From IMG/VR virus record IMGVR_UViG_3300023174_009220: DNA of 64,000 nucleotides; one strand, given 5' to 3'. This document shows positions 18,137 through 60,717 of the stretch, one piece after another. Numbering within the stretch: position 1 is the stretch's first letter; each line of letters opens with the position of its first letter. The stretch is from an uncultured virus (IMG/VR IMGVR_UViG_3300023174_009220). Lineage: Duplodnaviria; Heunggongvirae; Uroviricota; Caudoviricetes. Both the position numbers and the translations under genes were made by a program. The notes beneath the pieces are model-generated. The model saw nothing but the letters and a program-made list of their open reading frames with translations, searched no databases and had not been told where the DNA came from.

Positions 18137-18137
<1 letters not shown>
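17943..18137 (-). CDS. Hypothetical protein with C-terminal RxxKLxxIL motif
   Basis: Ends KRGGKLDEILK; start overlaps the purA stop. Confidence 0.7.
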
Positions 18138-19834
<1,697 letters not shown>

Positions 19835-28272: not shown

Positions 28273-29211
28273 ATGGCGATGCAACAGAACTTACAGATGT
28301 TAGAATCTGACTTTCAGAAAAAAATCGATAGCGATATCAAAATTGAACCAAGAGACTGGATGCCAGATGACTATCGAAAAAGTTTAATCAGACAGATATC
28401 TCAACATGCCCACAGTGAATATGTTGGGATGTTACCAGAGGCCAATTGGATTACAAGGGCTCCAAGTTTAAGAAGAAAGTCTGTATTGTTAGCAAAAGTC
28501 CAAGATGAAGCCGGCCATGGACTTTATCTTTATTCGGCAGCTGAAACCTTAGGTGTCTCAAGAGAAGATTTAGTTTCAGACCTTGTTTTAGGAAAGTCAA
28601 AATACTCCTCTATTTTTAACTATCCAACACTTAGTTGGGCTGATATGGGAGCTATCGGTTGGTTAGTAGACGGGGCTGCTATTATGAATCAAGTTGCCTT
28701 ATGCAAAACCTCATACGGGCCGTATGCTAGGGCTATGGTAAAAATATGTAAAGAGGAATCATTTCACCAAAGACAGGGATATGAAATTATGACCAAGCTA
28801 ATGGCGGGCTCAAACGAACAAAAAGAAATGGCCCAAGATGCCGTAAATCGTTTTTGGCAACCGGCTTTAATGATGTTTGGTCCCCAAGATAGCGATTCAA
28901 AACACACAGAGCAATCTATAAAGTGGAAGATTAAAAGGTTTACAAATGACGAATTAAGAAGGCAATTTGTTGACTCAACAGTTCCGCAAGCAAAGTTGAT
29001 TGGATTAGAAATACCTGATGAAAAACTAAATTGGAATGAAAAAACCGGACACTTTGACTTTAGTCAACCCGACTGGGATGAATTCTGGCAGGTGTTGTCA
29101 GGAAACGGACCGTGTAATAAAGAACGCCTGGAGTCAAGAAAAAAATCAAAACTGGATGGTCAGTGGGTTGTAGATGCAGCTACCGCTTTTTCAAAGAAAA
29201 GGCGAGTTTAA
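28273..29211 (+). CDS. paaA: 1,2-phenylacetyl-CoA epoxidase subunit A
   Basis: [57 protein letters not shown]; diiron ExxH motifs intact. Confidence 0.95.
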
Positions 29212-31565: not shown

Positions 31566-32294
31566 ATGGATTACACAAAAGACTTTAAAAAATTTGCACT
31601 GAGTGAGGGTTTATCATCAATGGACCTGCACTACCACCAACAACAAATTGAGGCGTCTATGACACCTTATATTCTTGAGGAAAGAGAGATGAGAGTTACA
31701 CAAATGGACATCTTTTCACGATTGATGCGTGATAGAATTCTTTGGATATCAGGAGTTGTGGATCAGAGAATGTGTGATGTGACACAAGCACAACTTATGT
31801 ATTTGGACTCGGTTGAAAAGAGAGATATCACACTTCATATAAATTCACCAGGTGGTTCCGTTTTACATGGTTTAGGTATTATTGATGTGATGAATTATAT
31901 CAACTCGGATATTCAAACTATTAATACCGGAATGGCGGCATCTATGGGTTCTGTTCTTCTTTCATCGGGAACAAAAGGAAAACGATCTTCACTTCTACAT
32001 TCCAGAGTAATGACACACCAAGTCAGTCACGGAATGCAGGGAAACATTCAAGATACAACTATCTCACACTTAGAAGGACACAAATACAACTATATTCTTT
32101 TTAAGATTTTAGCTGATAATTGTGGAAAAACTTTTGATCAAATGATTGAATCTTCCAGAAGAGATAAATGGTTTAACTCACATGAAGCTTTAGAATTCGG
32201 ACTCATTGATGAGGTTATCGGTGAAAGTTCAATGAAAAATCTACTAGAGGGTTTTGATATATACTATAATAAGGAAGTTCTTGCAGAAAAATAA
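31566..32294 (+). CDS. clpP: ATP-dependent Clp protease proteolytic subunit
   Basis: MDIFSRLMRDRI, INSPGGSV, GMAASMG (Ser), MTHQ (His), RRDKW (Asp). Confidence 0.95.
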   Translation: MDYTKDFKKFALSEGLSSMDLHYHQQQIEASMTPYILEEREMRVTQMDIFSRLMRDRILWISGVVDQRMCDVTQAQLMYLDSVEKRDITLHINSPGGSVLHGLGIIDVMNYINSDIQTINTGMAASMGSVLLSSGTKGKRSSLLHSRVMTHQVSHGMQGNIQDTTISHLEGHKYNYILFKILADNCGKTFDQMIESSRRDKWFNSHEALEFGLIDEVIGESSMKNLLEGFDIYYNKEVLAEK

Positions 32295-41976: not shown

Positions 41977-44900
41977 CTATCTGATTATTTCTCTTAAGAC
42001 TTCACTTGTTTTACTTTCGGATTCGATGTTTACAAAGTAGAGACCTGGCATCAACTTTTCATCAATAACAAATAAATTAATCCCTGATGTGATTTTTACA
42101 GAAACGATATTAACAAGCGATCCTTTACTATCTTTGATTACTATTTTAGCATCTCCCAATAACGATTTATCATTTACCACAACTGAGAATTTACCAGTGC
42201 TTGGATTAGGGAAAGCAGATAGATAAGCAGAAGAGGATTTACCACACTTGGCTAAAATTGGTCCCCACTCTGAGTAGTTTCCGTCTATGTCATACTGTAA
42301 TAATTTATAATAATTATCGCCTGATTCTTTATCTATAAAATTATACGTTAGTTCTGATGTTGAATTAAGTGCGGATTCTATTTTTGCTATTGACTGCCAA
42401 ATAACCCCATCTGTTGACTTTTGAATCTCGAAATAATCTGAATTATGCTCAGTTGCTGTTTTCCACTCAATTTTAGTGGCCTCTGTTTCACAGTTAGTAG
42501 TAAAACTAAATAACTGGACTGGAAGCGCTTGTGAGTTTGGAGTTCCAATATTAAACCAACTAAACCCTTGTGTGTTATTACTTGATATTAAAAATGATTG
42601 TGGGTTTGCGTTTTGAGGAATTGTTACATGTGTTCCACAGGATTGCCAAGAAGTATGTGATGAACCTGGTGATTTTATAATTCTACAAATCTGTGGTGTT
42701 GTCATACCATTTAAGTTATTTGCAAAAAGTGTGACATTATAAGGTGTTGAATTGATTGTAGCGTTATAATTTGAACCTGTTGGTATCACTTCCCAATAAC
42801 CATCTGCAGAATAGTTTTGAATAAGTGAATTTGAAATTGTTAGTGGAAGCCCATTGTATAAAGGCTGATTGTTTACTAAAGGTGCTCCGGTTTTATATTG
42901 AACAGTCAATGTCTGATTAGTTCCCGGACTAGAAGTAAAGTTAATTTGTGTATATCGGTTAAAGTTAGAAGTTCCAACTGGGAAAAGTCCCGCTAATCCA
43001 TTAGTTGCTTGAGAAGAAAAATATCTACGAAAAGGTCCAACGATTGTTCCAGTATTATAATTTAGAGTTCCAGGTTGTGAACTACTAACGCCCAAAGTCA
43101 GTAAATTATTCAAAGTTGTAAAGACATTACCCTGTATCATAGTAAGAATATTATTAACAACTACTGGTTGTCCAAGTGTCAGAGTGGCTCCTCCGCTTTT
43201 ATTTACTCGCATATTAAATAGTTGAGTAGAGCCGTTTCCGCTAACAGTGGAGTTGGTGTTTCCAATAAAATTGACTGTTCCAATAGAAGCAGTTAAGGTT
43301 CCGGAATTTACAAGATCGTGTGTTATATTTAAACTATCATTACTTAGGTCTAAGGTAACACCGGGGTTGATAAAGACATCGTATGCATTTCCGTTAACCG
43401 AAAGAGTAGGAGTCACATTTCCAATACACAGACCCCCGTTAGCCTGGCTTAGTGTGAAGACTTGCGTATTTGAATTTGGCTGAGCAGCACCGGATAATCT
43501 AATATAATGTCCAGCTGGTTGTTTTTCATACCAGTTAGTGGAGGTTGCCCAATCTGTAGATGTTAAACCTCCCCATAAGAGATCATTTGTGCCAATAGCA
43601 CCCGCTAAGGAAGCGTCGTTTGGTTGATTAAAAGTAACCAACTTTTGATATGAAGTTGAGCATTGTCCATTACTGACAGTCCATTGTAATGTATAGGCTT
43701 GGCCGTAATTTCCGGTAAATGTTGATGTAGGTGAGTTAGGATTGGAGAATGAACCACCCGATCCGCTAAAGACGGTCCAAGTTCCAGTCTGACCAGCAGA
43801 TGGTGTGTTTGCTCCTAATGTGACCTGATTTAGACCACATGTTAAACTACCCGTTTGTGAAGACCCAGCATTTGCCACTGGGTTAGAAAGCACAGTGACA
43901 GTAGTGGAAGCAGTATTAGAACATCCATTTGAATTTGTTCCTGTTACAGTATAGGTTTGTGTTCCGTTTGGATAAAAAGTAACTCCATTTGTTACTCCGT
44001 TATTCCAAGAATAGGAATTGGCACCCGATCCGGTCAAGGTTACCGCTGTTCCTGCACAAACTGTATTCGCGCTGGCGCTGATGGAAAGCGTTGGTGCAGC
44101 ATTTACATTAACTGTAGTTTGGGCTGTTCCTGTACATCCGTTCGCTGCGGTACCTGTTACCGTGTAAGTCTGAGTAGTATTGGGCGTAAAGGCCACGCCG
44201 TTGGAAATGCCGTTATTCCATGAGTAAGAATTGGCACCTGATGCCGTCAATGTCACGGGCGTTCCCCCACAAACCGTATTCGTGCTGGCATTGATGGAAA
44301 GGATTGGTGCAGCATTGACCGTAACCGTGGTTTGCGCCGTGCCCGTGCATCCGTTCGCTGCGGTACCTGTCACGGTGTAGGTTTGGGTAGAGGCCGGGGT
44401 AAAGGCCACACCGTTGGTTACACCGTTGTTCCATGCGTAGGTGCTTGCTCCTGAACCGTTCAAAGATACTCCTGATCCTGAACAAATTGTTTGATTTGGT
44501 CCGGCACTAACTGATGGTAATGGGTTTACTGTAATTGTTCTACTTGAAGAACTTGAACATCCATTTGAAGTAGCGGTAACTGTGTAAGTGGTAGTACTGC
44601 TGGGCGTGGCAATCGGGTTTGAAATTGAAGAATTATTAAGTGATGCTGATGGTGACCACATGTAAGTTGCGTTAGATCCAGTATTATAATGAACAATTCC
44701 GTTAAAAGTTCGAGGTGAGTTTGCTCCGCTAAAAGCACCACATAGACCAACTCCAGCGTTGAGGGTTAAAGTTCCATTAGAATAAGAACTACTTGCGGTT
44801 GTGTAAATTGCGTCATATTGAACATAGATTCCATAAGTAGAACCTGGAGGTATTATCAAACTACCTACTGCCATATATGTAGGCGTAGCTGCCACACCGT

Positions 44901-46611
44901 TTAGTGTATAGGTTCCAAGCAAAGTCCAAGCTCCGGGATTGAGTTCGTTTCCTGCATAGCTTCCAACTCGATAGTAAACATTAACAGACTGAACACTAGT
45001 AGTCGTAGGGTTTAGAGTAAAACCAGTGACCGTTACTTGATTTCCACCCGTAGTCAGGTCAAACATATTTCCACCGTAGCATCCATTTCCACCCGCAAAA
45101 GTTGTAGTTAAAGAACCAGATGCTTGTGTAGAAACGTTAAGTTGTGTTGAAGAACCCGCACATATTGTGTTACTTGAAGCAGAAGTTGTCAAAGTTGGTG
45201 GGTAATTAACAGTTACAGTTGCAGAAACACAGTTGGTACTAAATTGACTTCCATTCCAGTTTCTTGCATAGTAAGTGGTAGTGGTAGTGGGTGAAACGGT
45301 AATGGAATTTCCCGTTCCAATTTGTGATGTACCACAACCGCCAGTGTACCAGTAGACAGTGCCAACCGCGCCGTTTGCTGTAAGCGTGGTAGATCCGCCA
45401 TTGCATATTGACCAAGAGCTGGCAGAGACTGACGTTGGATCTGCGGGTGGTGGTGCTGAGCAAAGGAGACCAATCTGGAAAGCGCTGTTAGTGCTATATC
45501 CATGCACCAAGATATAATAAGTAAGACCTGGAACTGATGTCCATTGATATGAAGCAGAGGTTGAAAGGCAGCTTGGCCCGTTATCATCATTTCCTCCAAC
45601 ACACGTAAGTGATGAACAGTTAGGTCCACTAAAAACGGAGATTTTGCTATCCCAAGCGGTATTGCAAAGATAAGCCGTCATAACTTGTCCTGTTCCTGCG
45701 ACTTGGAACCAAACACCTGGCATAGTTTGGCTTACACCACAAGCATTATTCTCACCAGTTCCGCTATTAGTAGCATTAACAGTAGTTGCTGAAAGTAATT
45801 GACCACATGATATTGCATACGCATTACAAACCAAGTCGTTTGCTGGAGCCGAAGGAGCCGAACAAGTTAAACAACTAACGGTGGATGTTCCGCATAAAGA
45901 TGCAGTTCCACAACTAGAGTTTGTATTGTAGTGAACGTATACGGTTCCTGTATAAGAAGAAGCCCAATTAAGAGGTGCATTTCCACTAGCAACAACTGGA
46001 CCGTTGTAAGTGCCAGAACGAACAGTGATATAACCACCGTAGCTATATCCAAATTGATAGGTTTGTCCAGAAGAAATGCCTGAGACTACAGAATAATCTC
46101 CTTGAAAGTTACAAGTAGAGATAGTAACCGTTGTGGGTGTTGTTGGCGCAACGGCTGATCCAAATTGAAATGTATTAACACAACCACCACCACCTCCTCC
46201 TCCACAGCCGGTTCTACAAACCGAGCGAGTTCTAATAGTTGTGCTTGATCCGCAAGCAGCGGTTGTGTGTGTATAAAATCTAACAGTTCCGGTAAACGTC
46301 GCTGTCCAAGTAATTCCGCCGGTGCCACTTGTTCCAGTCACTCCTACGAGAGGAGCCGCACCATTGTCATCTACCGTGATGCGGTCGGTGGTTATCGAGC
46401 TACGAAATGTATAGGTATTTCCTGAAGTAACATTGACTAATGAATACTCCCCAGCATATCCGGCAGAGGTAATGGTTTCAAATAAGCAACTTGAGTTACA
46501 TGTTGGGGTATATGATGTGGTTGGCCATTGACCATACGGTGCAGTATAACATTGCGAACTAACATAAAAACTTGTGAAAAATACAAAAATTGATAATAAT
46601 AAATTCTTCAT
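41977..46611 (-). CDS. Large secreted protein with Ig-like/PKD-like repeats and T9SS type A C-terminal sorting domain
   Basis: Signal peptide MKNLLLSIFVFF..SSQ; 71-aa repeats; ALPVQLFSF..WKTATEHNSDYFEIQKS and AFPNPSTGKF..PGLYFV C-terminus. Confidence 0.85.
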   Translation of the reverse strand: MKNLLLSIFVFFTSFYVSSQCYTAPYGQWPTTSYTPTCNSSCLFETITSAGYAGEYSLVNVTSGNTYTFRSSITTDRITVDDNGAAPLVGVTGTSGTGGITWTATFTGTVRFYTHTTAACGSSTTIRTRSVCRTGCGGGGGGGCVNTFQFGSAVAPTTPTTVTISTCNFQGDYSVVSGISSGQTYQFGYSYGGYITVRSGTYNGPVVASGNAPLNWASSYTGTVYVHYNTNSSCGTASLCGTSTVSCLTCSAPSAPANDLVCNAYAISCGQLLSATTVNATNSGTGENNACGVSQTMPGVWFQVAGTGQVMTAYLCNTAWDSKISVFSGPNCSSLTCVGGNDDNGPSCLSTSASYQWTSVPGLTYYILVHGYSTNSAFQIGLLCSAPPPADPTSVSASSWSICNGGSTTLTANGAVGTVYWYTGGCGTSQIGTGNSITVSPTTTTTYYARNWNGSQFSTNCVSATVTVNYPPTLTTSASSNTICAGSSTQLNVSTQASGSLTTTFAGGNGCYGGNMFDLTTGGNQVTVTGFTLNPTTTSVQSVNVYYRVGSYAGNELNPGAWTLLGTYTLNGVAATPTYMAVGSLIIPPGSTYGIYVQYDAIYTTASSSYSNGTLTLNAGVGLCGAFSGANSPRTFNGIVHYNTGSNATYMWSPSASLNNSSISNPIATPSSTTTYTVTATSNGCSSSSSRTITVNPLPSVSAGPNQTICSGSGVSLNGSGASTYAWNNGVTNGVAFTPASTQTYTVTGTAANGCTGTAQTTVTVNAAPILSINASTNTVCGGTPVTLTASGANSYSWNNGISNGVAFTPNTTQTYTVTGTAANGCTGTAQTTVNVNAAPTLSISASANTVCAGTAVTLTGSGANSYSWNNGVTNGVTFYPNGTQTYTVTGTNSNGCSNTASTTVTVLSNPVANAGSSQTGSLTCGLNQVTLGANTPSAGQTGTWTVFSGSGGSFSNPNSPTSTFTGNYGQAYTLQWTVSNGQCSTSYQKLVTFNQPNDASLAGAIGTNDLLWGGLTSTDWATSTNWYEKQPAGHYIRLSGAAQPNSNTQVFTLSQANGGLCIGNVTPTLSVNGNAYDVFINPGVTLDLSNDSLNITHDLVNSGTLTASIGTVNFIGNTNSTVSGNGSTQLFNMRVNKSGGATLTLGQPVVVNNILTMIQGNVFTTLNNLLTLGVSSSQPGTLNYNTGTIVGPFRRYFSSQATNGLAGLFPVGTSNFNRYTQINFTSSPGTNQTLTVQYKTGAPLVNNQPLYNGLPLTISNSLIQNYSADGYWEVIPTGSNYNATINSTPYNVTLFANNLNGMTTPQICRIIKSPGSSHTSWQSCGTHVTIPQNANPQSFLISSNNTQGFSWFNIGTPNSQALPVQLFSFTTNCETEATKIEWKTATEHNSDYFEIQKSTDGVIWQSIAKIESALNSTSELTYNFIDKESGDNYYKLLQYDIDGNYSEWGPILAKCGKSSSAYLSAFPNPSTGKFSVVVNDKSLLGDAKIVIKDSKGSLVNIVSVKITSGINLFVIDEKLMPGLYFVNIESESKTSEVLREIIR

Positions 46612-46883
46612 TGCGTATAAAATTTTTTTTAATAAATTAATTTTACACTCACTTGAAGAATCCTTACTGGAAACCCCCATCTACCATGGGCCGGTCGAGT
46701 TATTTTAAATTCAGTATATATATTACAATCTAAATACAGAGATTTAACTTTTAAGTAATAATTATTTAAAACCTATTTATAATGAATATTTGTAAGTATT
46801 GGTTGATAATTTTAAAATTATCACTTTCTAAAAAAAAATCATTTTTATAGATTATATATAATAGAGAAAAAAAACGGAGTGAT

Positions 46884-47486: not shown

Positions 47487-49922
47487 ATGAAAATTGCCTT
47501 AACTCTTCTGACATTAATTTTCTCAATCAGTCTATTTTCACAGTATTGTCCATATTTAGGGCCTGATTTAACCCTACCTTGTGGTGTAAATCAAACAACA
47601 TTAACCGCTGATTTATCTCAGTGTGGACCTGGATCTCAACCAAAACAAACTACATCTTACGGAGTAACAAATATCCCTTATGTTGCTCAAAATAATACAG
47701 GAACAAACGTTTTTTTAACCGATGATTCGCAAACAGGTCCATTTAACATTGGTTTTAATTTTTGTTTTTATGGTCAGACTTATAATCAATTTTATATCGG
47801 GTCTAATGGGTGGATTTCATTTAGTTCAAATCAACCAACAACTTTTACATCAACGTCTATTCCTAATGCCGGATTTTCAATACCAAAAAATTGTATTATG
47901 GGACCTTGGCAAGATTGGAATCCTGGCATCGGAGGTCAAATTAAATATCAAGTTTTAGGAACAGCTCCTTGTAGAAAATTAGTTGTTAGTTGGGTCGGAG
48001 TCCCAATGTTTTCATGCACCAATCTACAAGGAACATTTCATATTGTAATATATGAATCAACAAACATTATTGAAAATCATATCGCAAATAAACCAAATTG
48101 TCCGCAGTGGGCAGGAGGAACCGCAGTTCAAGGTATTCACGATTTATTAGGAACGTCAGCAGTTACAGTTCCAGGAAGAAATTCGACACAATGGTCGACA
48201 ATTAATAACTCTTATCGTTATACACCACAAGGACCAACTGTAACTCCGACTTATACGTGGTTTCAAGTTGGAAATGTTAATTCAATTGGAACGGGTTTAT
48301 CAATAGTTGTAAATCCTCCACCACAAGGGGCGTATTATACTTGTATTCCTGTATATCCAACTTGTAATGCTGGGTGGTCCGTTTGTAATAGTGGTGTAGG
48401 ATTAGGTCCTGATACAATTCATGTTACTTTAACCCCTAATTTACCAACACCTACAATTACACCAATTGATCCTTTGTGTAATAATGGTTGCAACGGATCT
48501 GTTGTTGTTACTCCTATTGGGGGGACTCAACCATTTAATATTATTTGGAATAATGGTGGAAACACATTAACTTTAAATAACCTTTGTTCGGGAAACTATA
48601 CATTTACATTAACTGATGGATCCGGCTGTGTTTATAATGGAGCAACAACTTTAAATAATCCACCACCATTACAACAACCAACAATTACGCCAACAGATCC
48701 TGTTTGTTTTAATGATTGTAATGGATCTGCAACAGTTAACCCTATAAGTGGTCTTGCTCCTTATACTTATTTATGGAGTAATGGTCAAACAACACAAACA
48801 GCGACTAATTTATGTTTTGGAAACTATTCTGTTGTTGTTACTGACCTAAATGGGTGTGTTTCTAATCAAACAACAACATTAAATAACCCACCACAAGTTA
48901 CAATCAACCCAATAACAGGATTTGATACAGTGTGTTTCAATTCTACAAGTAATTTATACAACGTTACAAGTAATTTTTTAAATTTAACATATAATTGGAC
49001 TTCACAAATTGGGACTATAACTTTAGGTCAAACATCAAATTCAGTTAATTTAAATGTTTCAGGTGTAAATAGCGGACTTTACGCAAATACTTTATCAGTT
49101 ATCGGTGTTAATCAGTTGGGTTGTCAATCTCAACCACAAACTTTTACAATTTATGACTTAAATGTTATACCACAGATTTCGCAAATAGACTCTTTATGTG
49201 AATATGATAACTGTCAAATATTAGTTGCTAATCCACCAGGTGGTCAGTTTACTGGACAAAACGTTTCTCAAAACCAATACTGCCCTAATTTGGGATTTAT
49301 TGGAATTGATAATATCACATATCAATATCAACAATCTGGATGTAGTTTTTTTGCAAACTCACAGATTCAGGTTTTTGGAAGACCACAAATATCAGTTACT
49401 CCTCAAAACCAATTTTTTGAAATTTGTGATGGAGATAGTGTTCACTCGGTCTATACTGTCAATTCACCAAGTGTTGGTTGGAATCAATGGATTATTTTAT
49501 CAGACACAATAGTTTCTTCTCAATTAAATTGGTCCTGGACTGGTGAAGGAATCTTTACTTTTGAAGTGACTCGTTGGAGTAACGGCTGCCAGTCTAATCC
49601 AGAAATAGTCGCAGTTACTTTGCAGTTGTGCCCCAATGAATTAATTTGGATTCCAAACACCTTTACCCCTGATGGTGACGAGTATAATCAATATTTCACA
49701 CCAGTGATAACTTCTGGAGTTGATATCTATCAATATCAAATGCAAATCTTTAATCGATGGGGCGAAATAGTGTGGGAATCATTTGATGTCAGTTCAAAAT
49801 GGGATGGGACTTATAATGGGTCAAAGTGTGCTGATGGGGTTTATAGTTGGCAAATCAGATTTGGAGTTCCTAAAACTGATGAGGTCAAAGAAATGAGAGG
49901 TCATTTGACAATTTTAAAATAA
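47487..49922 (+). CDS. Secreted protein with SprB-like repeats and T9SS type B (gliding-motility-associated, CHU_C) C-terminal domain
   Basis: Signal peptide; DPLCNNGCNGS..GGTQPF / GLAPYTYLWSNG repeats; IPNTFTPDGDEYNQYF..IFNRWGE..WDGTYNG..DGVY. Confidence 0.88.
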   Translation: MKIALTLLTLIFSISLFSQYCPYLGPDLTLPCGVNQTTLTADLSQCGPGSQPKQTTSYGVTNIPYVAQNNTGTNVFLTDDSQTGPFNIGFNFCFYGQTYNQFYIGSNGWISFSSNQPTTFTSTSIPNAGFSIPKNCIMGPWQDWNPGIGGQIKYQVLGTAPCRKLVVSWVGVPMFSCTNLQGTFHIVIYESTNIIENHIANKPNCPQWAGGTAVQGIHDLLGTSAVTVPGRNSTQWSTINNSYRYTPQGPTVTPTYTWFQVGNVNSIGTGLSIVVNPPPQGAYYTCIPVYPTCNAGWSVCNSGVGLGPDTIHVTLTPNLPTPTITPIDPLCNNGCNGSVVVTPIGGTQPFNIIWNNGGNTLTLNNLCSGNYTFTLTDGSGCVYNGATTLNNPPPLQQPTITPTDPVCFNDCNGSATVNPISGLAPYTYLWSNGQTTQTATNLCFGNYSVVVTDLNGCVSNQTTTLNNPPQVTINPITGFDTVCFNSTSNLYNVTSNFLNLTYNWTSQIGTITLGQTSNSVNLNVSGVNSGLYANTLSVIGVNQLGCQSQPQTFTIYDLNVIPQISQIDSLCEYDNCQILVANPPGGQFTGQNVSQNQYCPNLGFIGIDNITYQYQQSGCSFFANSQIQVFGRPQISVTPQNQFFEICDGDSVHSVYTVNSPSVGWNQWIILSDTIVSSQLNWSWTGEGIFTFEVTRWSNGCQSNPEIVAVTLQLCPNELIWIPNTFTPDGDEYNQYFTPVITSGVDIYQYQMQIFNRWGEIVWESFDVSSKWDGTYNGSKCADGVYSWQIRFGVPKTDEVKEMRGHLTILK

Positions 49923-54695: not shown

Positions 54696-55349
54696 ATGTG
54701 GAGTTTTTTAATTATAGTAATAAATATTATATTTCTTGAAATAATTTTAAGTATAGATAATGCTGCTGTGCTATCCACTATGGTTAATGAATTACCTAAA
54801 AATCAACATAAAAAGGCACTAACTTGGGGAATCTTGGGAGCTTACCTCTTTAGAGGAGTGGCTCTATTTTTTACTTCAATTTTAGTCTCACTTTGGTGGT
54901 TAAAACTACTTGGTGGTCTTTACTTAATTTACCTTTTTATTTCATCTTTTTCCAATACAGAGCAAGATAAGTCAGCTAGCACATTTAAGATACCCTTTTT
55001 AAACAAGTTTTGGTCAACAGTGGTTATGATTGAACTAATTGATATTGTTTTTAGCATCGATAACATATTTTCCGCAGTTGCTTTCACTGATAACTTTTGG
55101 ACTATTTGTTTTGGAGTCTTTATTGGAATTTTAGCTATCCGGTTTGCCACCACTAAACTCTTAGGCCTTCTTCATAAAATACGGGGTTTAGAAAAGATGG
55201 CCTTCTTAGTTATTGGTATATTGGGAATTAAACTATCACTTTCTGTCTTTATACCCCAATTGCAAAATGAGTGGGTAGATTTGGTCTTTTCTCTCTTAAC
55301 TCTTGTGTTATTTTCTATTCCTGTAATGCTCTCAAGGGCTAAAAAATAG
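54696..55349 (+). CDS. terC: TerC/Alx family membrane protein
   Basis: LEIILSIDNAAVL, GILGAYLFRG, DIVFSIDNIFSAVA. Confidence 0.9.
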   Translation: MWSFLIIVINIIFLEIILSIDNAAVLSTMVNELPKNQHKKALTWGILGAYLFRGVALFFTSILVSLWWLKLLGGLYLIYLFISSFSNTEQDKSASTFKIPFLNKFWSTVVMIELIDIVFSIDNIFSAVAFTDNFWTICFGVFIGILAIRFATTKLLGLLHKIRGLEKMAFLVIGILGIKLSLSVFIPQLQNEWVDLVFSLLTLVLFSIPVMLSRAKK

Positions 55350-55777: not shown

Positions 55778-56602
55778 ATGTATATGAAATCTATAAAAAT
55801 TACCCAAAAAATTACTGAAAGAAATTGCCAATCTATCGATAAGTATTTTAAGGAAGTATCAGATATTTCACTTATTTCAAAATTAGATGAAGAAAGATTA
55901 TTTGAAAGAATCAAATCAGGTGATATGCAAGCCAGAAATGAGTTAATCTCGGCTAATTTAAGATTTGTAATTTCTATTTCAAAGCAATATCTCGGTCGTG
56001 GTTTAAGCCTTGAAGATCTGATATCAGAAGGAAATATCGGCTTAGTTAAAGCCTGTGATAAATTTCAACCAGAAAGAGGCCTTAAATTCATTACCTATGC
56101 TGTGTGGTGGATTCGACAATCAATCTTAGAAGCCATTTCACAAACCGGAAGAGACATTAGATTACCACATAACGTCAATAACTTATTAAACCAGATTAGA
56201 AGTTGTGAAGATAAGTTGACAGGTCAGTTATCAAGAACTCCCCATTTATCTGAAGTGGCCGATGAAATGGGAATCGACATCTCAAAGTTAGAGTCTATTT
56301 TGGTCTTAAAATGGGGTTCAAAATCCTTAGATGTTTCGCTTTCAGACGATGGTGACTTTTCACTAATCGATACCTTACAGTCAGAAGACGAATTTGATAT
56401 GGGTTTTGATTTAGACCATAACAAACAACAAATAGCGTCACTTTTTTTCAAACTAAGCGATAAAGAAAGGTTTGTTATTACGCGTCTATTTGGATTAGGA
56501 GTTGAAGCCGCCTCTACAACAGAAGTGGCAATGGAGTTAAATCTAAGTGGAGAAAGAGTTCGACAGATTAAAAATTCGGCTCTTAAAAAGATGAGGGGCT
56601 AG
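55778..56602 (+). CDS. RNA polymerase sigma-70 factor, Bacteroidetes primary-sigma-like
   Basis: SIKITQKITER..SIDKY; ANLRFVISISKQY; DLISEGNIGL; KFITYAVWWIRQSI; region 4 LSGERVRQI. Confidence 0.93.
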   Translation: MYMKSIKITQKITERNCQSIDKYFKEVSDISLISKLDEERLFERIKSGDMQARNELISANLRFVISISKQYLGRGLSLEDLISEGNIGLVKACDKFQPERGLKFITYAVWWIRQSILEAISQTGRDIRLPHNVNNLLNQIRSCEDKLTGQLSRTPHLSEVADEMGIDISKLESILVLKWGSKSLDVSLSDDGDFSLIDTLQSEDEFDMGFDLDHNKQQIASLFFKLSDKERFVITRLFGLGVEAASTTEVAMELNLSGERVRQIKNSALKKMRG

Positions 56603-56722
56603 TTTACTATCCCAATTTTTTGGATTCCTGTTCAAAAATAGATCTTCTTAAATTGTTACCGCATTTCTTTATTAATTTTATTAAAAAAATCAAAAAAGAT
56701 TTGGCACAATAAAACTAAATAA

Positions 56723-56743
56723 TTATCTTTGTTTAAGTTATTT
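56723..56743 (+). promoter_or_regulatory. TATCTTTG promoter within a 21-bp sequence duplicated at 57914-57934
   Basis: TTATCTTTGTTTAAGTTATTT occurs at both sites, each upstream of tRNA-like sequences. Confidence 0.7.
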
Positions 56744-56765
56744 GAGTGGTGAGAGTTAATTATTT

Positions 56766-56800
56766 GGTCCCATCGTCTATCGGTTAGGACGCCAGGTTTT
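56766..56800 (+). pseudogene. 5' half of a tRNA-Glu gene truncated in the anticodon loop
   Basis: GGTCCCA-TC-GTCT-ATCGGTT-AGGAC-G-CCAGG-TTTT followed by unrelated sequence. Confidence 0.7.
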
Positions 56801-56829
56801 AAGCTAAGCTCGTGTCTAACCTCATTTAC

Positions 56830-56901
56830 GGCCCGGTCTTCTAATGGCTAGGAAATCCGGTTTTCATCCGGGCAATCGGAGTTCGATTCTCCGTCGGGCT
56901 A
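56830..56901 (+). tRNA. tRNA-Glu (TTC)
   Basis: Acceptor GGCCCGG/TCGGGCT; anticodon arm TCCGG-TT-TTC-AT-CCGGG; T-loop GTTCGATTC; CCA not encoded. Confidence 0.9.
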
Positions 56902-57804
56902 CTAACCTAATCCTTTGTGATAGGCTTTTATCCACTTTCTAATTGTATTTTCAGATACATTATAAAGTTTTCCAGTTTTAGGAAACCCCATTTGTTTAGT
57001 TTGTTCTAATAAAACTGGTAATGGGGGTCTTTCTACTTTTCTTTGTTTAAATTTAGATTGAATTTCTAACTCTGTAAAACCAAATTCATTTCTTTCTTTT
57101 TTTTGGTATTTTTTTGGTTTAACGACTAAACCAATTCTGTGATTATTAATCTTTGGTTTGTCCTTCAATATTAATAATATTTGTTTGAATACCTCATCGA
57201 TGTTGGTTTTTATCTCTTTTTCTGAGACTCTAATAACTAACCAACCTAAGTCATTTAATAGTTTATCTTTTTTATCATCTCTTTCTTTTCTTTCGGGTAA
57301 TAAGTGTTGTGACCCATCAATCTCAACCGCAACCGTTTCATTTACAAAAGCAAAATCAATAAAATATGGAAAAACAGAATATTCCCTAACTATTGAATAT
57401 TTTTTATCTAAACTATTTTTTTCAATATATTCAATACACAATTTTTCAGGGTAAGAAACATTGGATAATCTCCAAGCGGTTTTTTCTGGATTATTTTTCA
57501 TAAACTCCAACCTTTTTTCTCGCATTATTTTTTTACTTTCTTCGGTGTGTTTGTAGTTTTCGGGATATTTTTTATGTGCTAATTTAATAGCTTCGGAAGA
57601 AGACCTAACTTTATTTCCCAATATGTCTTTTATATCTTCGGATTGGATTTTAAATTTTTTTCTTAAATCTTTAACACTATAAGATTCATCAACATATAAT
57701 CTAACAATCTCATCTTTAATTACAGACAACTTTTCGCATTTTTTAATGTGTTGTTTTAGATTAACTTTATCTAAATTGCGACCACAAATTTTACATTCAA
57801 ACAT
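56902..57804 (-). CDS. Vsr/DUF559-type (PD-(D/E)xK) endonuclease with Zn-finger, NUMOD3-like and HTH motifs; homing-endonuclease-like
   Basis: CKICG..H, KHTEESKKIM, YFIDFAF..AVEIDGSQH..RDDKKDKLL..GWLVIRV, VSENTIRKW; start placed at MFECK after TATATA. Confidence 0.8.
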   Translation of the reverse strand: MFECKICGRNLDKVNLKQHIKKCEKLSVIKDEIVRLYVDESYSVKDLRKKFKIQSEDIKDILGNKVRSSSEAIKLAHKKYPENYKHTEESKKIMREKRLEFMKNNPEKTAWRLSNVSYPEKLCIEYIEKNSLDKKYSIVREYSVFPYFIDFAFVNETVAVEIDGSQHLLPERKERDDKKDKLLNDLGWLVIRVSEKEIKTNIDEVFKQILLILKDKPKINNHRIGLVVKPKKYQKKERNEFGFTELEIQSKFKQRKVERPPLPVLLEQTKQMGFPKTGKLYNVSENTIRKWIKAYHKGLG

Positions 57805-57950
57805 AATACCTACTTTATATATAAATATCACGAACCCACAAAAAAATCATACAAACTAACCTTAAATTGTAAATTTTTTTTGTAAAAAAATTTGATAGTA
57901 TAAAAGGTTCTACTTATCTTTGTTTAAGTTATTTAAGAAATAAATTATAT

Positions 57951-58069
57951 AGTCAGCTGGCGGAATTGGTAACGCACAAGTATAATGCTTGGTGTTGTGG
58001 TATGAAAAAATTTGAAGATTTAGAATTTGAAATATCCTGGGAAGCGGGGTTCGATTCTCCGTCGGGCTA
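57951..58069 (+). pseudogene. Chimeric pseudo-tRNA: Leu-like 5' fragment, AT-rich spacer, Glu 3' half
   Basis: AGTCAGCTGGCGGAATTGGTAACGC, then ATCCTGG-GAAG-CGGGGTTCGATTCTCCG-TCGGGCTA at 58034-58069. Confidence 0.6.
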
Positions 58070-58083
58070 CAAAAAATAACAAA

Positions 58084-58157
58084 GGACCGGTAGTTCAGTT
58101 GGTTAGAATACCTGCCTGTCACGCAGGGGGTCGCGGGTTCGAGTCCCGTCCAGTCCG
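58084..58157 (+). tRNA. tRNA-Asp (GTC)
   Basis: GGACCGG/CCAGTCC acceptor (one C-A mismatch); CCTGC-CT-GTC-AC-GCAGG; GGTTCGAGTCC. Confidence 0.92.
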
Positions 58158-58187
58158 CAAAAAAAAAGACAATTTTTTTGAAAATTG

Positions 58188-58219
58188 TTTGGTAGAGATA
58201 AAAAAAAGAGTTATCTTTG
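58188..58219 (+). promoter_or_regulatory. Bacteroidetes-type promoter upstream of the large RNA
   Basis: TTTG at 58188-58191; TATCTTTG at 58212-58219. Confidence 0.7.
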
Positions 58220-58224
58220 TTAAA

Positions 58225-59133
58225 CAAAATCAAAAAAGTGAATATAAAAAGAGAGTTGCAAACGAGCAACCTCATAAATTGAAATATTGTTCTTTAGCAG
58301 TTAGCTTCGGCTGGCTGTGAAAAGAGGGGCGGCTTATAGTCCCTAAAATAAACCGTGAAAGCGGGATAAAGTGAACACAATTGCTAAATGTGTTTGCGTC
58401 TCATACCCCTCGGGGTGTGAGGTCGAGTAAGCAAGTGGGACACCACAACTCCTTATTAGTCGAGGGTAACACTGTAGATGAAATGGATTTGTGACCGGGC
58501 AATTGTAGATTGTCTGGTTGACTTTGGAAGAAGAATAGGATTAACCCATAGGATTGTTGCAAGAAGTAGTGACTCACCGGTCTTTATCATTGCGGAATCC
58601 AACTCAAAAGGTGTCTTAAAGTCGAAAGGCAATCAGATGTACAGGTGGTGCTGTTATTTGACACTCTTCTCTCTACCAGGAGAGTCGTAGTGAAGAGATC
58701 TTAAAGAGTTGTGATGGAGGCATCACACCGAGTTGTTCAGTATTGCTGGAGTCAAAAGCTTTGGGAACTGAGAGGTGACCACAACTTGGAAAAATCTACA
58801 AGCACTAAATTTCTAACTATTATTAAATACTAAGAAATCAAAAGTGTTACCTAGTTACTGATGAAAGATACCTACTTAGTCGTGAGCGTTCACGGCCACT
58901 GAAGCCCGAAAAGCTGATGTGATTTCATCGAAAAACTTATAGAGGGTCGAACCTCAAATCAGCTCGCAAGGTTGAGTAAGCAGAGTAAATGGAGAGTAAT
59001 TAGTAACTTAAGTGGTGGTTGGTCTAACCAACCGGTATTGACAGAATACTTCTCAAAAGGAAGTGGATAAGAAGGGAAACCATAATCTGACCAAAGTTCT
59101 GTTGTCAAAGGTGTAATCTCAGCCTTTTTTTTT
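58225..59133 (+). ncRNA. Large (~900 nt) ornate structured ncRNA, GOLLD-like candidate
   Basis: No credible ORF; elevated GC; many UUCG/GNRA hairpins; long-range helices; adjacent to tRNAs; ends in a hairpin plus T9. Confidence 0.7.
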
Positions 59134-59149
59134 ATAAACCAAATTCAAT

Positions 59150-59257
59150 GGCTCGTTGGTCTGGGGTCTCTTAAAAGAGAAACTAAAACGAAAGTAGAAG
59201 TTTAAGACGGTCAACACACTTGTTGAGAAAAAAGATGTTCGAATCTCTTACGGGCTA
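59150..59257 (+). ncRNA. tRNA-like RNA with an expanded, structured D-loop
   Basis: Acceptor GGCTCGT/ACGGGCT, D-stem GTCT/AGAC enclosing two hairpins, TCAACA/TGTTGA arm, GTTCGAATC T-loop. Confidence 0.55.
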
Positions 59258-59263
59258 TTCAAA

Positions 59264-59291
59264 AAAAACCCATCAACTTTGATGGGTTTTT
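59264..59291. terminator. Bidirectional intrinsic terminator
   Basis: AAAAACCCATCAA-CT-TTGATGGGTTTTT. Confidence 0.85.
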
Positions 59292-59301
59292 CTTTTTTAT
59301 A

Positions 59302-60717
59302 TCATTCAAAACTTAAACCCCAGTTGTGGTAAACATCTTGCATAGTAGCAATTGCCTCCTTGTTTTTGATATCACCATGACCATTATCTTGAAAAAGAAA
59401 TTTACATAATACCTCCTGTGAATAGTTACCATCTTGATCAACTAAGGTCCAGTGGTTAAAAGTAATGCCTCTATAAGCTCTACCCCAGTGAAATATATCA
59501 TATGAGTCATAAGCCCAATCTTGGCAACTATCATTTCCCATGAGTGTCCAAACCCTTCTATCATTGATTATTTCTACCCCTTCGTTCTTTCTCTTTGTCT
59601 TATACCACATATAATAAGAAGGTGTTTTAGGAAGACAATTTTTAGTATCTTGTTCCCAACCGCTGTAATATCCAGATAAAATATCGCTAACACAATCAGT
59701 AAATGATGTACCACTTTTTAGATTTGTATTATTTTCTATCTCAAACTTACTATCTCCGGAAATACCCATCCAACGAGTTCCTTCCCATTGTCTTGAATCT
59801 CTAAGTTCTTGGTCCGTTGACCACGGATAATCCTTAAACTGTTCAAACCAACCAAAGATTCTTTGTTTATCAGAGTGGTCCCCTTTTTCGGTATATTCAT
59901 ATGGTCCTTCAATATCTGCTTTAAGACTATCAGGAATTTCGGGAAATTGAGAACTTCCCTTCCACTTATCCCAAGTAGAATGGTCTCTGACTTTATAAAA
60001 GGCAACAGTCCAACCCTTAACGAAATTAGAGACTCCGTCGCCAGGAAACCCCCTATGAACCCTGATTTTCCACCTTACAGGAAGTAATATTTGAGCGGAT
60101 TCATATTTAGAACATAAGCTCAATTTATGTCTGATAGTGATATAATCAGAAGAAGCTGGTTTTGGAAAATAATCTGTTGTATCGGCAAAATCAGCCAGCT
60201 TTACTTTTCCCTTAAACTGGGGATATTTATTTCCGTCACAATCCATCTCAATTAACCAGTTTGATTGCATATCATCTAACCACTTGCCTAGTTGTAATTG
60301 AACGCCAAAACAAACTTCTTCTAAGGCATCTCTAAGGTCATTTGATGCTTGTAGTATTTTATTCCAAACATCAGTAGATTTATCACTAGTTAGAGTTGTT
60401 ATAATTCCACTTATGATTTTGCAGGTGATAGTGGTGATAATTGCAGCTGCTGTGCCACTGGGAAAAATTACTCCTAAACCCTCAATGATTTTTGAAACAA
60501 ACATTCCAATAACCGAAGGAGTTGGGTCTTTGAAAGTTTTAGAGTTTACATTATCTTGCACAATAGTTATTGCATATCTTGCATCGTCTCTAAAATCGTC
60601 TATAAATTTTGATATAGTGATGAGGTTTTCTTGAACAATATTTAAGGTGGGGTCTTGATAAACTCTTTGACCTTGGCTATTTAGTGTCCAGTTCCAAGTT
60701 TGGGGCTGGTATGACAT
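59302..60717 (-). CDS. Hypothetical protein (N-terminal helical/hydrophobic region, Trp-rich C-terminal half)
   Basis: 471-aa ORF with TATATA upstream. Confidence 0.75.
   Translation of the reverse strand: MSYQPQTWNWTLNSQGQRVYQDPTLNIVQENLITISKFIDDFRDDARYAITIVQDNVNSKTFKDPTPSVIGMFVSKIIEGLGVIFPSGTAAAIITTITCKIISGIITTLTSDKSTDVWNKILQASNDLRDALEEVCFGVQLQLGKWLDDMQSNWLIEMDCDGNKYPQFKGKVKLADFADTTDYFPKPASSDYITIRHKLSLCSKYESAQILLPVRWKIRVHRGFPGDGVSNFVKGWTVAFYKVRDHSTWDKWKGSSQFPEIPDSLKADIEGPYEYTEKGDHSDKQRIFGWFEQFKDYPWSTDQELRDSRQWEGTRWMGISGDSKFEIENNTNLKSGTSFTDCVSDILSGYYSGWEQDTKNCLPKTPSYYMWYKTKRKNEGVEIINDRRVWTLMGNDSCQDWAYDSYDIFHWGRAYRGITFNHWTLVDQDGNYSQEVLCKFLFQDNGHGDIKNKEAIATMQDVYHNWGLSFE

Follow-up and report, generated by a model that had tools for sequence, protein, structure and literature searches.

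What kind of gene occupies positions 58225-59133 of the window, the 64,000-nt stretch of DNA from an uncultured virus that was analysed here? The initial annotation, made from the sequence alone, described this region as about 900 nt without a credible ORF and richer in GC than the genome. It proposed an ornate non-coding RNA, either a member of the GOLLD family or a new relative of it. The sequence features listed there were all found in place. The longest ORF lying wholly inside the region is 70 aa long (58478-58690), and the G+C content of the region (0.407) exceeds that of the window (0.338). The fold calculated for the single sequence (-273.5 kcal/mol) is more stable than those of its shuffled versions (-231.6 ± 6.5 kcal/mol; z = -6.4), with 0 of 20 shuffles being as good.

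GOLLD RNAs have been known since 2009, and the family is characterized by a discrete RNA, the level of which rises in lytic growth. Comparison with the Rfam models of GOLLD, ROOL, and OLE, as suggested in the initial annotation, produced a match to the first of these. Three matches were obtained for the whole window at gathering thresholds: two tRNAs and GOLLD (RF02032). The latter, on the plus strand at 58728-59125, scores 276.2 bits (E 9.9e-78) against a curated gathering cut-off of 150 bits, covers model positions 1-416 of 416, and is not truncated; the RF02032 model represents the conserved 3' domain of GOLLD only. No match to ROOL (presumably Rfam RF03087), OLE, group I/II introns, or any other large RNA family was detected by Rfam models in positions 56600-59400 at E ≤ 1, nor was ROOL matched in the whole window at the gathering score. 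The RNA is a full-length, ordinary member of the known GOLLD family and not a new kind of RNA; nor is it a new relative of the family. Nothing that we found contradicts this assignment, and its weak points are confined to the mechanism. It is highly probable that the locus as a whole encodes a full-length GOLLD RNA of about 880-910 nt in a Mahaphage-related freshwater huge phage of Bacteroidota. The elements of the locus are as follows.

58084-58158, plus strand: tRNA-Asp (GTC), directly upstream of the RNA in the tRNA cluster (Rfam, 65.2 bits; ARAGORN).
58188-58219, plus strand: Bacteroidota-type promoter motif TTTG-N20-TATCTTTG (pattern scan).
58251-58273, plus strand: leader hairpin with the core GTTGC-AAACGA-GCAAC at the 5' edge of the RNA (covariation).
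58290-58727, plus strand: variable 5' domain of GOLLD, about 430 nt with about 20 helices (covariation in 24 sequences).
58503-58511, plus strand: loop TTGTAGATT of a covarying hairpin; its pairing partner is the 5' linker flank (58793-58801).
58728-59125, plus strand: conserved 3' domain of GOLLD, 398 nt (whole RF02032 model; helices covary in 24 sequences).
58793-58842, plus strand: linker between the first hairpin of the 3' domain and the core, composed of the pairing flank AATCTACAA and an A+T-rich variable stretch.
59107-59133, plus strand: last stem-loop AAGG-TGTAATCTCAG-CCTT followed by a run of 9 T (RF02032 model, alignment).
59150-59257, plus strand: decayed tRNA look-alike, 108 nt, which aligns with the tRNA-like genes following GOLLD in relatives.
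59264-59300 (59264-59291 in the scan), plus strand: intrinsic terminator that ends the RNA operon, with a 12-pair stem, a 4-nt loop, and a T-rich tail.

The blastn-based search of 50,697 phage records revealed two relatives of the RNA, in LR756502.1 (642,428 bp) and LR745206.1 (634,780 bp), with 73% identity over 86% of the query. Both of these closest records contain full matches to RF02032 (275.3 and 287.3 bits). The 16-mer at 58327-58342, which is invariant in the 5' domain, was used as a search seed and was located in 15 viral contigs, 12 of which carry GOLLD at 265-294 bits; the remaining three loci (L012, L014, and L017) are chance matches. Most of the 118 metagenome loci and 76 of the 79 genome loci retrieved with this seed were also discarded as chance matches. 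Among bacterial and archaeal genomes, the only true relative obtained with the 16-mer was a 501-bp contig (L330), and no cultured host or prophage was found. An 18-mer from the 3' end of the RNA had no match in viral contigs, while the 14-mer CAGGTGGTGCTGTT retrieved 120 loci and was too unspecific for any of them to be used. Further relatives were collected with the 16-mer from metagenome contigs and with a second seed from viral contigs. After removal of duplicates, 23 distinct full-length relatives were retained and aligned with the RNA of the window (alignment A2: 24 rows, 1099 columns, mean column identity 69%). The first batch of relatives shares 58-88% identity with the window over positions 58320-59125. 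Many of the GOLLD relatives are located on very large contigs of 152-492 kb.

The initial annotation had named covariation among homologues as a means of checking the proposed structure, and such support was found across the 24 distinct full-length sequences. RNAalifold analysis of A2 predicted 203 consensus pairs, 138 of them with compensatory double changes. The 5' half alone accounts for 126 pairs in 20 helices; 88 of these pairs are changed on both sides (51.4 ± 3.9 in shuffles), and 95.4% of cells are paired, as compared to 81.1 ± 0.4% in shuffles and 40-42% when the partners are slid. On any of these measures, 0 of 500 shuffles reach the observed value. Since covariation beats every control, the 430 nt upstream of the Rfam match constitute a genuine conserved structured domain. 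The contiguous, structured, and less conserved 5' domain of about 400 nt that belongs to a GOLLD RNA is thus present, as judged from covariation and size. All five capped hairpins described previously occur in the covariation-supported consensus. Three of them (58299-58318, 58354-58365, and 58403-58420) correspond to helices 2, 4/5, and 7 of the 5' structure, while the two 3' hairpins are helices of the RF02032 model. In the leader hairpin (helix 1), 5 of 6 pairs are changed on both sides, with only 73.8% of cells paired in this poorly aligned region; in relatives, it is located directly after the promoter or after a tRNA-Met.

The four long-range helices proposed in the initial annotation fared differently when examined for covariation: one was supported, one had been assigned the wrong partner, and two were unsupported. 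AGTTACT/AGTAACT (helix 769-775/939-945) is the core-closing helix of the family; it is included in the RF02032 model, 98.2% of its cells are paired, and 6 of 7 pairs are changed on both sides. For the segment ATCTACA (58794-58800), pairing was confirmed, but its partner is the second TGTAGAT (58504-58510) and not the first one (58473-79), for which only 66% of cells pair. The strands of GGTAACACT/AGTGTTACC are complementary in 87.5% of cells, but their variants mostly break the pairing, in 3 of 9 pairs the only departures are unpaired cells, and the 5' strand falls inside a local covarying hairpin. The remaining helix, GATGAAA/TTTCATC, is in competition with the family helix TTCAT 58924-28 / ATGGA 58989-93.

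The pairing between the 5'-domain loop and the linker comprises at least six contiguous pairs in all 24 sequences, with a mean of 8.2 pairs as compared to 5.0 ± 0.23 for shuffled flanks. Because A2 is out of register at this site in about 10 rows, we relied on an alignment-free count. Compensatory variants include TAGTGAAT/ATTCACTA in L174 and TGTGGGT/ATCCACA in L004, L009, and L010. A loop of the 5' domain thus pairs with the start of the linker, which ties the two halves into one RNA. This pairing may well be a helix of the published GOLLD structure. The variable part of the linker is 35-52 nt long, has an A+T content of 70-86%, and is poorly conserved in the 24 sequences; in the window, it is 41 nt long with 80% A+T.

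The helices of the 3' domain characteristic of the family, including the core-closing long-range helix and the terminal stem-loop, are conserved. Both adjacent hairpins, which form self-kissing loops in the GOLLD RNA env-38 (PMC12990946), are present; the palindrome TCGA is found on one of them in 22 of 24 sequences, and the last loop, GTAATCTCA, is kept in 18 of 24. The env-38 RNA, as reported by Kretsch et al. (2025; PMC12286853), is 833 nt long and forms a 14-mer cage (PDB 9MEE), with residues 1-420 representing the 5' region, residues 421-833 the 3' region, and an internal linker that is unresolved in the structure. The RNA of the window shares with it the two-domain layout (5' domain of about 420-430 nt, 3' domain of about 400 nt), the variable A+T-rich linker after the first 3' hairpin, in the same position as the internal linker of env-38, and the phage setting beside tRNAs. 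The 5' domains of the two RNAs are likened by size and layout. The window RNA differs in being about 50-70 nt longer when the leader hairpin is counted and in being carried by a Mahaphage-type huge phage of Bacteroidota.

The second solved GOLLD RNA, that of Streptococcus agalactiae (700 nt; PDB 9L0R), forms a 12-mer cage, and the difference in copy number between the two, 12 versus 14, is reported to be set by the 5' domain (PMC12990946). It belongs to the same family and has the same 3' domain as the window RNA but is described as devoid of several 5' helices and of the paired hairpin P21b (PMC12990946). With both hairpins and a larger 5' domain, the RNA examined here is therefore closer to env-38 than to the S. 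agalactiae GOLLD. Mycobacterium GOLLD RNAs occur in tRNA clusters of mobile elements (Morgado et al., 2020, cited in PMC12990946). These contain a tRNA inside the linker, whereas the linker of the window RNA is short, A+T-rich, and tRNA-free, with a tRNA-like gene located after the RNA. ROOL is likewise a large phage-associated RNA encoded near tRNAs, which also assembles into RNA-only cages (PMC12286853), but it is unrelated in sequence and fold.

The RNA is preceded by its own promoter motif, as the initial annotation had claimed. The TTTG...TATCTTTG type of motif is what we take to be the Bacteroidota promoter consensus. The pattern TTTG-N17-23-TAnnTTTG occurs 15 times in the window versus 5.4 ± 2.2 expected occurrences, and 0 of 100 shuffles reach 15. 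The sigma-70 consensus is not enriched in the window (14 versus 9.5 ± 3.2). Motifs with the same TTATCTTTG box precede three RNA genes, at 56700, 57891, and 58188, and TATCTTTG is found at the same place in the relatives L004, L005, L006, L009, and L010. Judging from the position of the motif, transcription would start a few bases past it, at about 58225-58230. The hairpin and T-run said to end the RNA are indeed present, but they do not form a canonical terminator and are absent from the list of the terminator scan. Being part of the conserved family fold, they represent a structural element of GOLLD, namely its last stem-loop. The T-run after this hairpin could itself stop the polymerase.

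The claimed location in a phage tRNA cluster holds true: ARAGORN identified tRNA-Glu (56830-56902) and tRNA-Asp (58084-58158) just upstream of GOLLD. In 13 of the 24 sequences, GOLLD is located, as in env-38, downstream of a tRNA-Met, which lies at a distance of ≤250 nt. Downstream of GOLLD, 18 of 24 sequences, including the window, have one to three tRNA look-alikes, while in L004, L009, L010, and L257 a terminator comes directly after GOLLD and no tRNA-like gene follows. GOLLD is therefore usually part of a tRNA-type operon but can also stand alone. Its flanking by tRNA or tRNA-like genes on both sides gives the impression that tRNA-processing enzymes cut its ends. In the look-alike of the window (59150-59257), the acceptor and D stems are intact, about 33 nt are inserted in the D loop, the T stem is poor, and the anticodon loop is odd; it was detected neither by ARAGORN nor by the Rfam tRNA model at E ≤ 1. 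With its poor T stem and no tRNA match, this degenerate copy is perhaps not a good substrate for RNase P.

Several further tRNA-like elements were observed. Relatives of the look-alike are found, for example, in L001 (3838-3911), L005 (2830-2906), L155, and L260. The anticodon loop of many look-alikes comprises 8 nt (CTTTTCAG or CTATTCAG), and their D loop is enlarged by 0, about 20, or about 33 nt. Only 8 of 23 look-alikes are called by ARAGORN, seven of them with a 2- or 4-base 'anticodon', and the copy of the window is the most degenerate one. A second tRNA-like element of the window (57951-58072, plus strand) is located behind the promoter motif at 57891-57922. Its D and T arms resemble those of a long-arm tRNA (Leu-like, TAA), 5 of 7 acceptor positions are paired, and the variable region is about 50 nt long. 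Neither ARAGORN nor Rfam at E ≤ 1 detected this element, and no relative of it was found among the retrieved loci. The tRNA at 3099-3202 of L008 has an anticodon-loop insertion of about 30 nt and appears as plain tRNA-Met (CAT) in relatives; it scores 61.8 bits with the Rfam tRNA model over 104 nt and is not called by ARAGORN.

A conserved element of about 80 nt, which starts with AAGTTTTCGTAGTGGTTAACTT and continues with three hairpins, is present at approximately 2855-2935 of L008 and also in L002, L003, L005-L007, L015, L016, L155, L164, L170, L178, and L260. It separates GOLLD, or the first tRNA look-alike, from the look-alike that comes next, and is absent from the window. None of the loci scanned gave an Rfam match to it at the gathering score.

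The stretch was found in freshwater and lake metagenomes and in six runs recorded as RNA. Contigs from RNA libraries of two further studies (X17 and X19) cover parts of 58311-59132. One of them (X17 record 6; 618 nt, 58458-59075, 8 differences) crosses the boundary of the 5' and 3' domains, and another one (X17 record 8) ends at 59132. These contigs show presence in RNA libraries and nothing more. Since ends, strand, and level are not readable from them, we infer the start and the end of the RNA, as well as its cutting by RNase P. X3 and X7 cover the whole region with its flanks and may hold DNA. Differential expression was not deduced from X17 and X19: word depths for the RNA are in the hundreds and the flanking protein genes are uncovered, but missing contig cover proves nothing. 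The contig ends at 59075/59076, which recur in two studies, were rejected as ends of the RNA; they lie inside the 3' domain, beside loose ends, and were read as strain variation.

Pfam analysis of the window revealed a baseplate-type protein, a sigma-70 factor, ClpP, adenylosuccinate synthetase, TerC, and an ABC ATPase, as well as two large proteins with type IX secretion sorting domains, a hallmark of Bacteroidota. The best matches of the baseplate-type protein are in uncultured phages of 642, 635, 735, and 636 kb, with identities of 56-38%. These genomes belong to the Mahaphage clade, for which Bacteroidetes hosts were predicted (Al-Shayeb et al., 2020; PMC7162821). The protein matches to Mahaphages, the type IX sorting domains, and the enriched Bacteroidota-type promoter motifs agree with the earlier suggestion of a Bacteroidetes jumbo phage. 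They point to a huge phage from freshwater, a relative of the Bacteroidota Mahaphages with genomes of 635-642 kb, as the carrier. GOLLD is present in one copy each in the 642 kb genome, the 635 kb genome, and a 483 kb contig of 98% completeness; the 735 kb and 636 kb genomes, screened with stricter filters, yielded no GOLLD. The host-like genes of the window encode adenylosuccinate synthetase, a PaaA-family protein, ClpP, TerC, and the phage's own sigma-70 factor, and two surface-type proteins carry the type IX domains; these genes occupy positions 18137-19420, 28273-29211, 31566-32294, 54696-55349, 55778-56602, 41977-46680, and 47487-49922.

The occurrence of GOLLD in Mahaphage-type genomes makes such phages a likely carrier for a subset of freshwater GOLLD RNAs. 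In this way, GOLLD is assigned to the phage clade with the largest known genomes and to hosts among the Bacteroidota. The word 'GOLLD' is absent from the main text of Al-Shayeb et al. (2020), and our full-text literature search retrieved no paper on GOLLD in huge, jumbo, or mega-phages or in Bacteroidetes. The 24-sequence alignment supplies covariation support for the complete 5' domain and its pairing with the linker, which is useful for comparison with the solved cages. The copy of the window is a well-formed example and adds no new mechanism.

The assignment was weighed against other readings of the region. Some huge phages recode stop codons, and under translation table 4 frames of 174 and 185 aa are opened, so that one could think of a protein-coding region with a changed genetic code or, otherwise, of a decayed, non-functional remnant. 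However, these frames need 4-5 reread TGA codons and run over the tRNA-Asp gene, and reading TAG as Q gains no longer ORF within 58225-59133 (none above 71 aa). The rest of the window consists of long ORFs under table 11. Substitutions in the region track base-pairing and not codons, and the RNA is kept at 58-88% identity over contigs of 150-640 kb. The chance that this reading is correct is negligible. Another reading restricts GOLLD to 58728-59125 and regards the 430 nt upstream as a separate structured RNA that merely adjoins it. This would agree with the span of the Rfam model, which covers the 3' part only, and with a contig (L325) in which a segment similar to the 5' domain of GOLLD (nhmmer E 4.9e-9) is not accompanied by any 3' domain scoring above the cut-off. 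Yet both halves occur together in all 24 full-length sequences, the loop-linker pairing recurs in 24 of 24 with compensatory changes, and one RNA-library contig bridges the halves. The scans revealed no terminator-like site or Bacteroidota-type promoter motif near 58727, and a variable 5' domain of similar size is reported for the published family (residues 1-420 of 833 in env-38; PMC12286853). We consider two separate RNAs very unlikely.

More weight, although still little, can be given to the view that GOLLD acts as a monomer or in a protein complex (as a scaffold, decoy, or ribozyme) and not as an RNA-only cage. The cages described in the two structural reports are those of two GOLLD RNAs only and were seen in vitro (PMC12286853; PMC12990946), ribosome pull-downs with GOLLD are cited by Kretsch et al. 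(PMC12286853), and the copy number is set by the 5' domain, the part of the RNA that varies. On the other hand, all helices of the 3' domain and the reported inter-chain contact loops are conserved in the window RNA, and the solved cages are reported to persist at nanomolar RNA (PMC12286853). An action outside a cage is thus regarded as improbable, and the cage-forming GOLLD RNA remains our preferred reading.

By analogy with the solved structures, the RNA of the window should self-assemble into a closed cage. Transcription would begin from its own Bacteroidota-type promoter (58188-58219), pass the T-run and the tRNA look-alike, and stop at the terminator (59264-59300), and a cut by RNase P at the look-alike would release the 3' end. 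In relatives, the upstream tRNA-Met would set the 5' end, both ends being cut as in tRNA operons. The RNA copies would join via loop-loop and minor-groove contacts, as in the two GOLLD RNAs solved by cryo-EM, and the product would be a closed cage, free of protein, that consists of 12-14 copies and encloses the floppy linker. The location of GOLLD inside tRNA operons leads us to guess at a tRNA-related role of the cage, which, late in infection, might keep or protect tRNA-related RNAs or components of translation. Such a role in tRNA biology or translation at this stage is nevertheless doubtful, and the four of 24 sequences that have no tRNA-like gene after GOLLD speak against it.

A broader and rather improbable proposal is that huge Bacteroidota phages possess GOLLD in a conserved non-coding operon, in which the cage acts on, stores, or presents odd tRNA-like RNAs, or in which these RNAs are four-base or shifty decoders for late recoding. 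Such an operon may consist of tRNA-Met, GOLLD, one to three non-standard look-alikes and, in some relatives, the element of about 80 nt. Many look-alikes combine the 8-nt anticodon loop (CUUUUCAG or similar) with a structured D-loop insertion. If this proposal were true, the 'lake-derived' GOLLD RNAs of the original discovery would come largely from huge phages.

Two minor observations concern the surroundings of GOLLD-like sequences. The Flavobacteriaceae-binned contig L325 mentioned above contains a dense tRNA array, with the elements of interest at 1081-1546, 1809-1935, and 2286-2410 on the minus strand. Two tRNA genes of this contig, 125-127 nt long, have a common conserved anticodon-loop insertion of about 52 nt; inspection by eye suggests TTA as a possible anticodon, in which case they would decode the stop codon TAA. 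In the window, a 309-aa ORF with DUF559 and restriction-endonuclease-like domains (56902-57831, minus strand) is located between the tRNA genes and may be a selfish nuclease that has invaded the RNA cluster.
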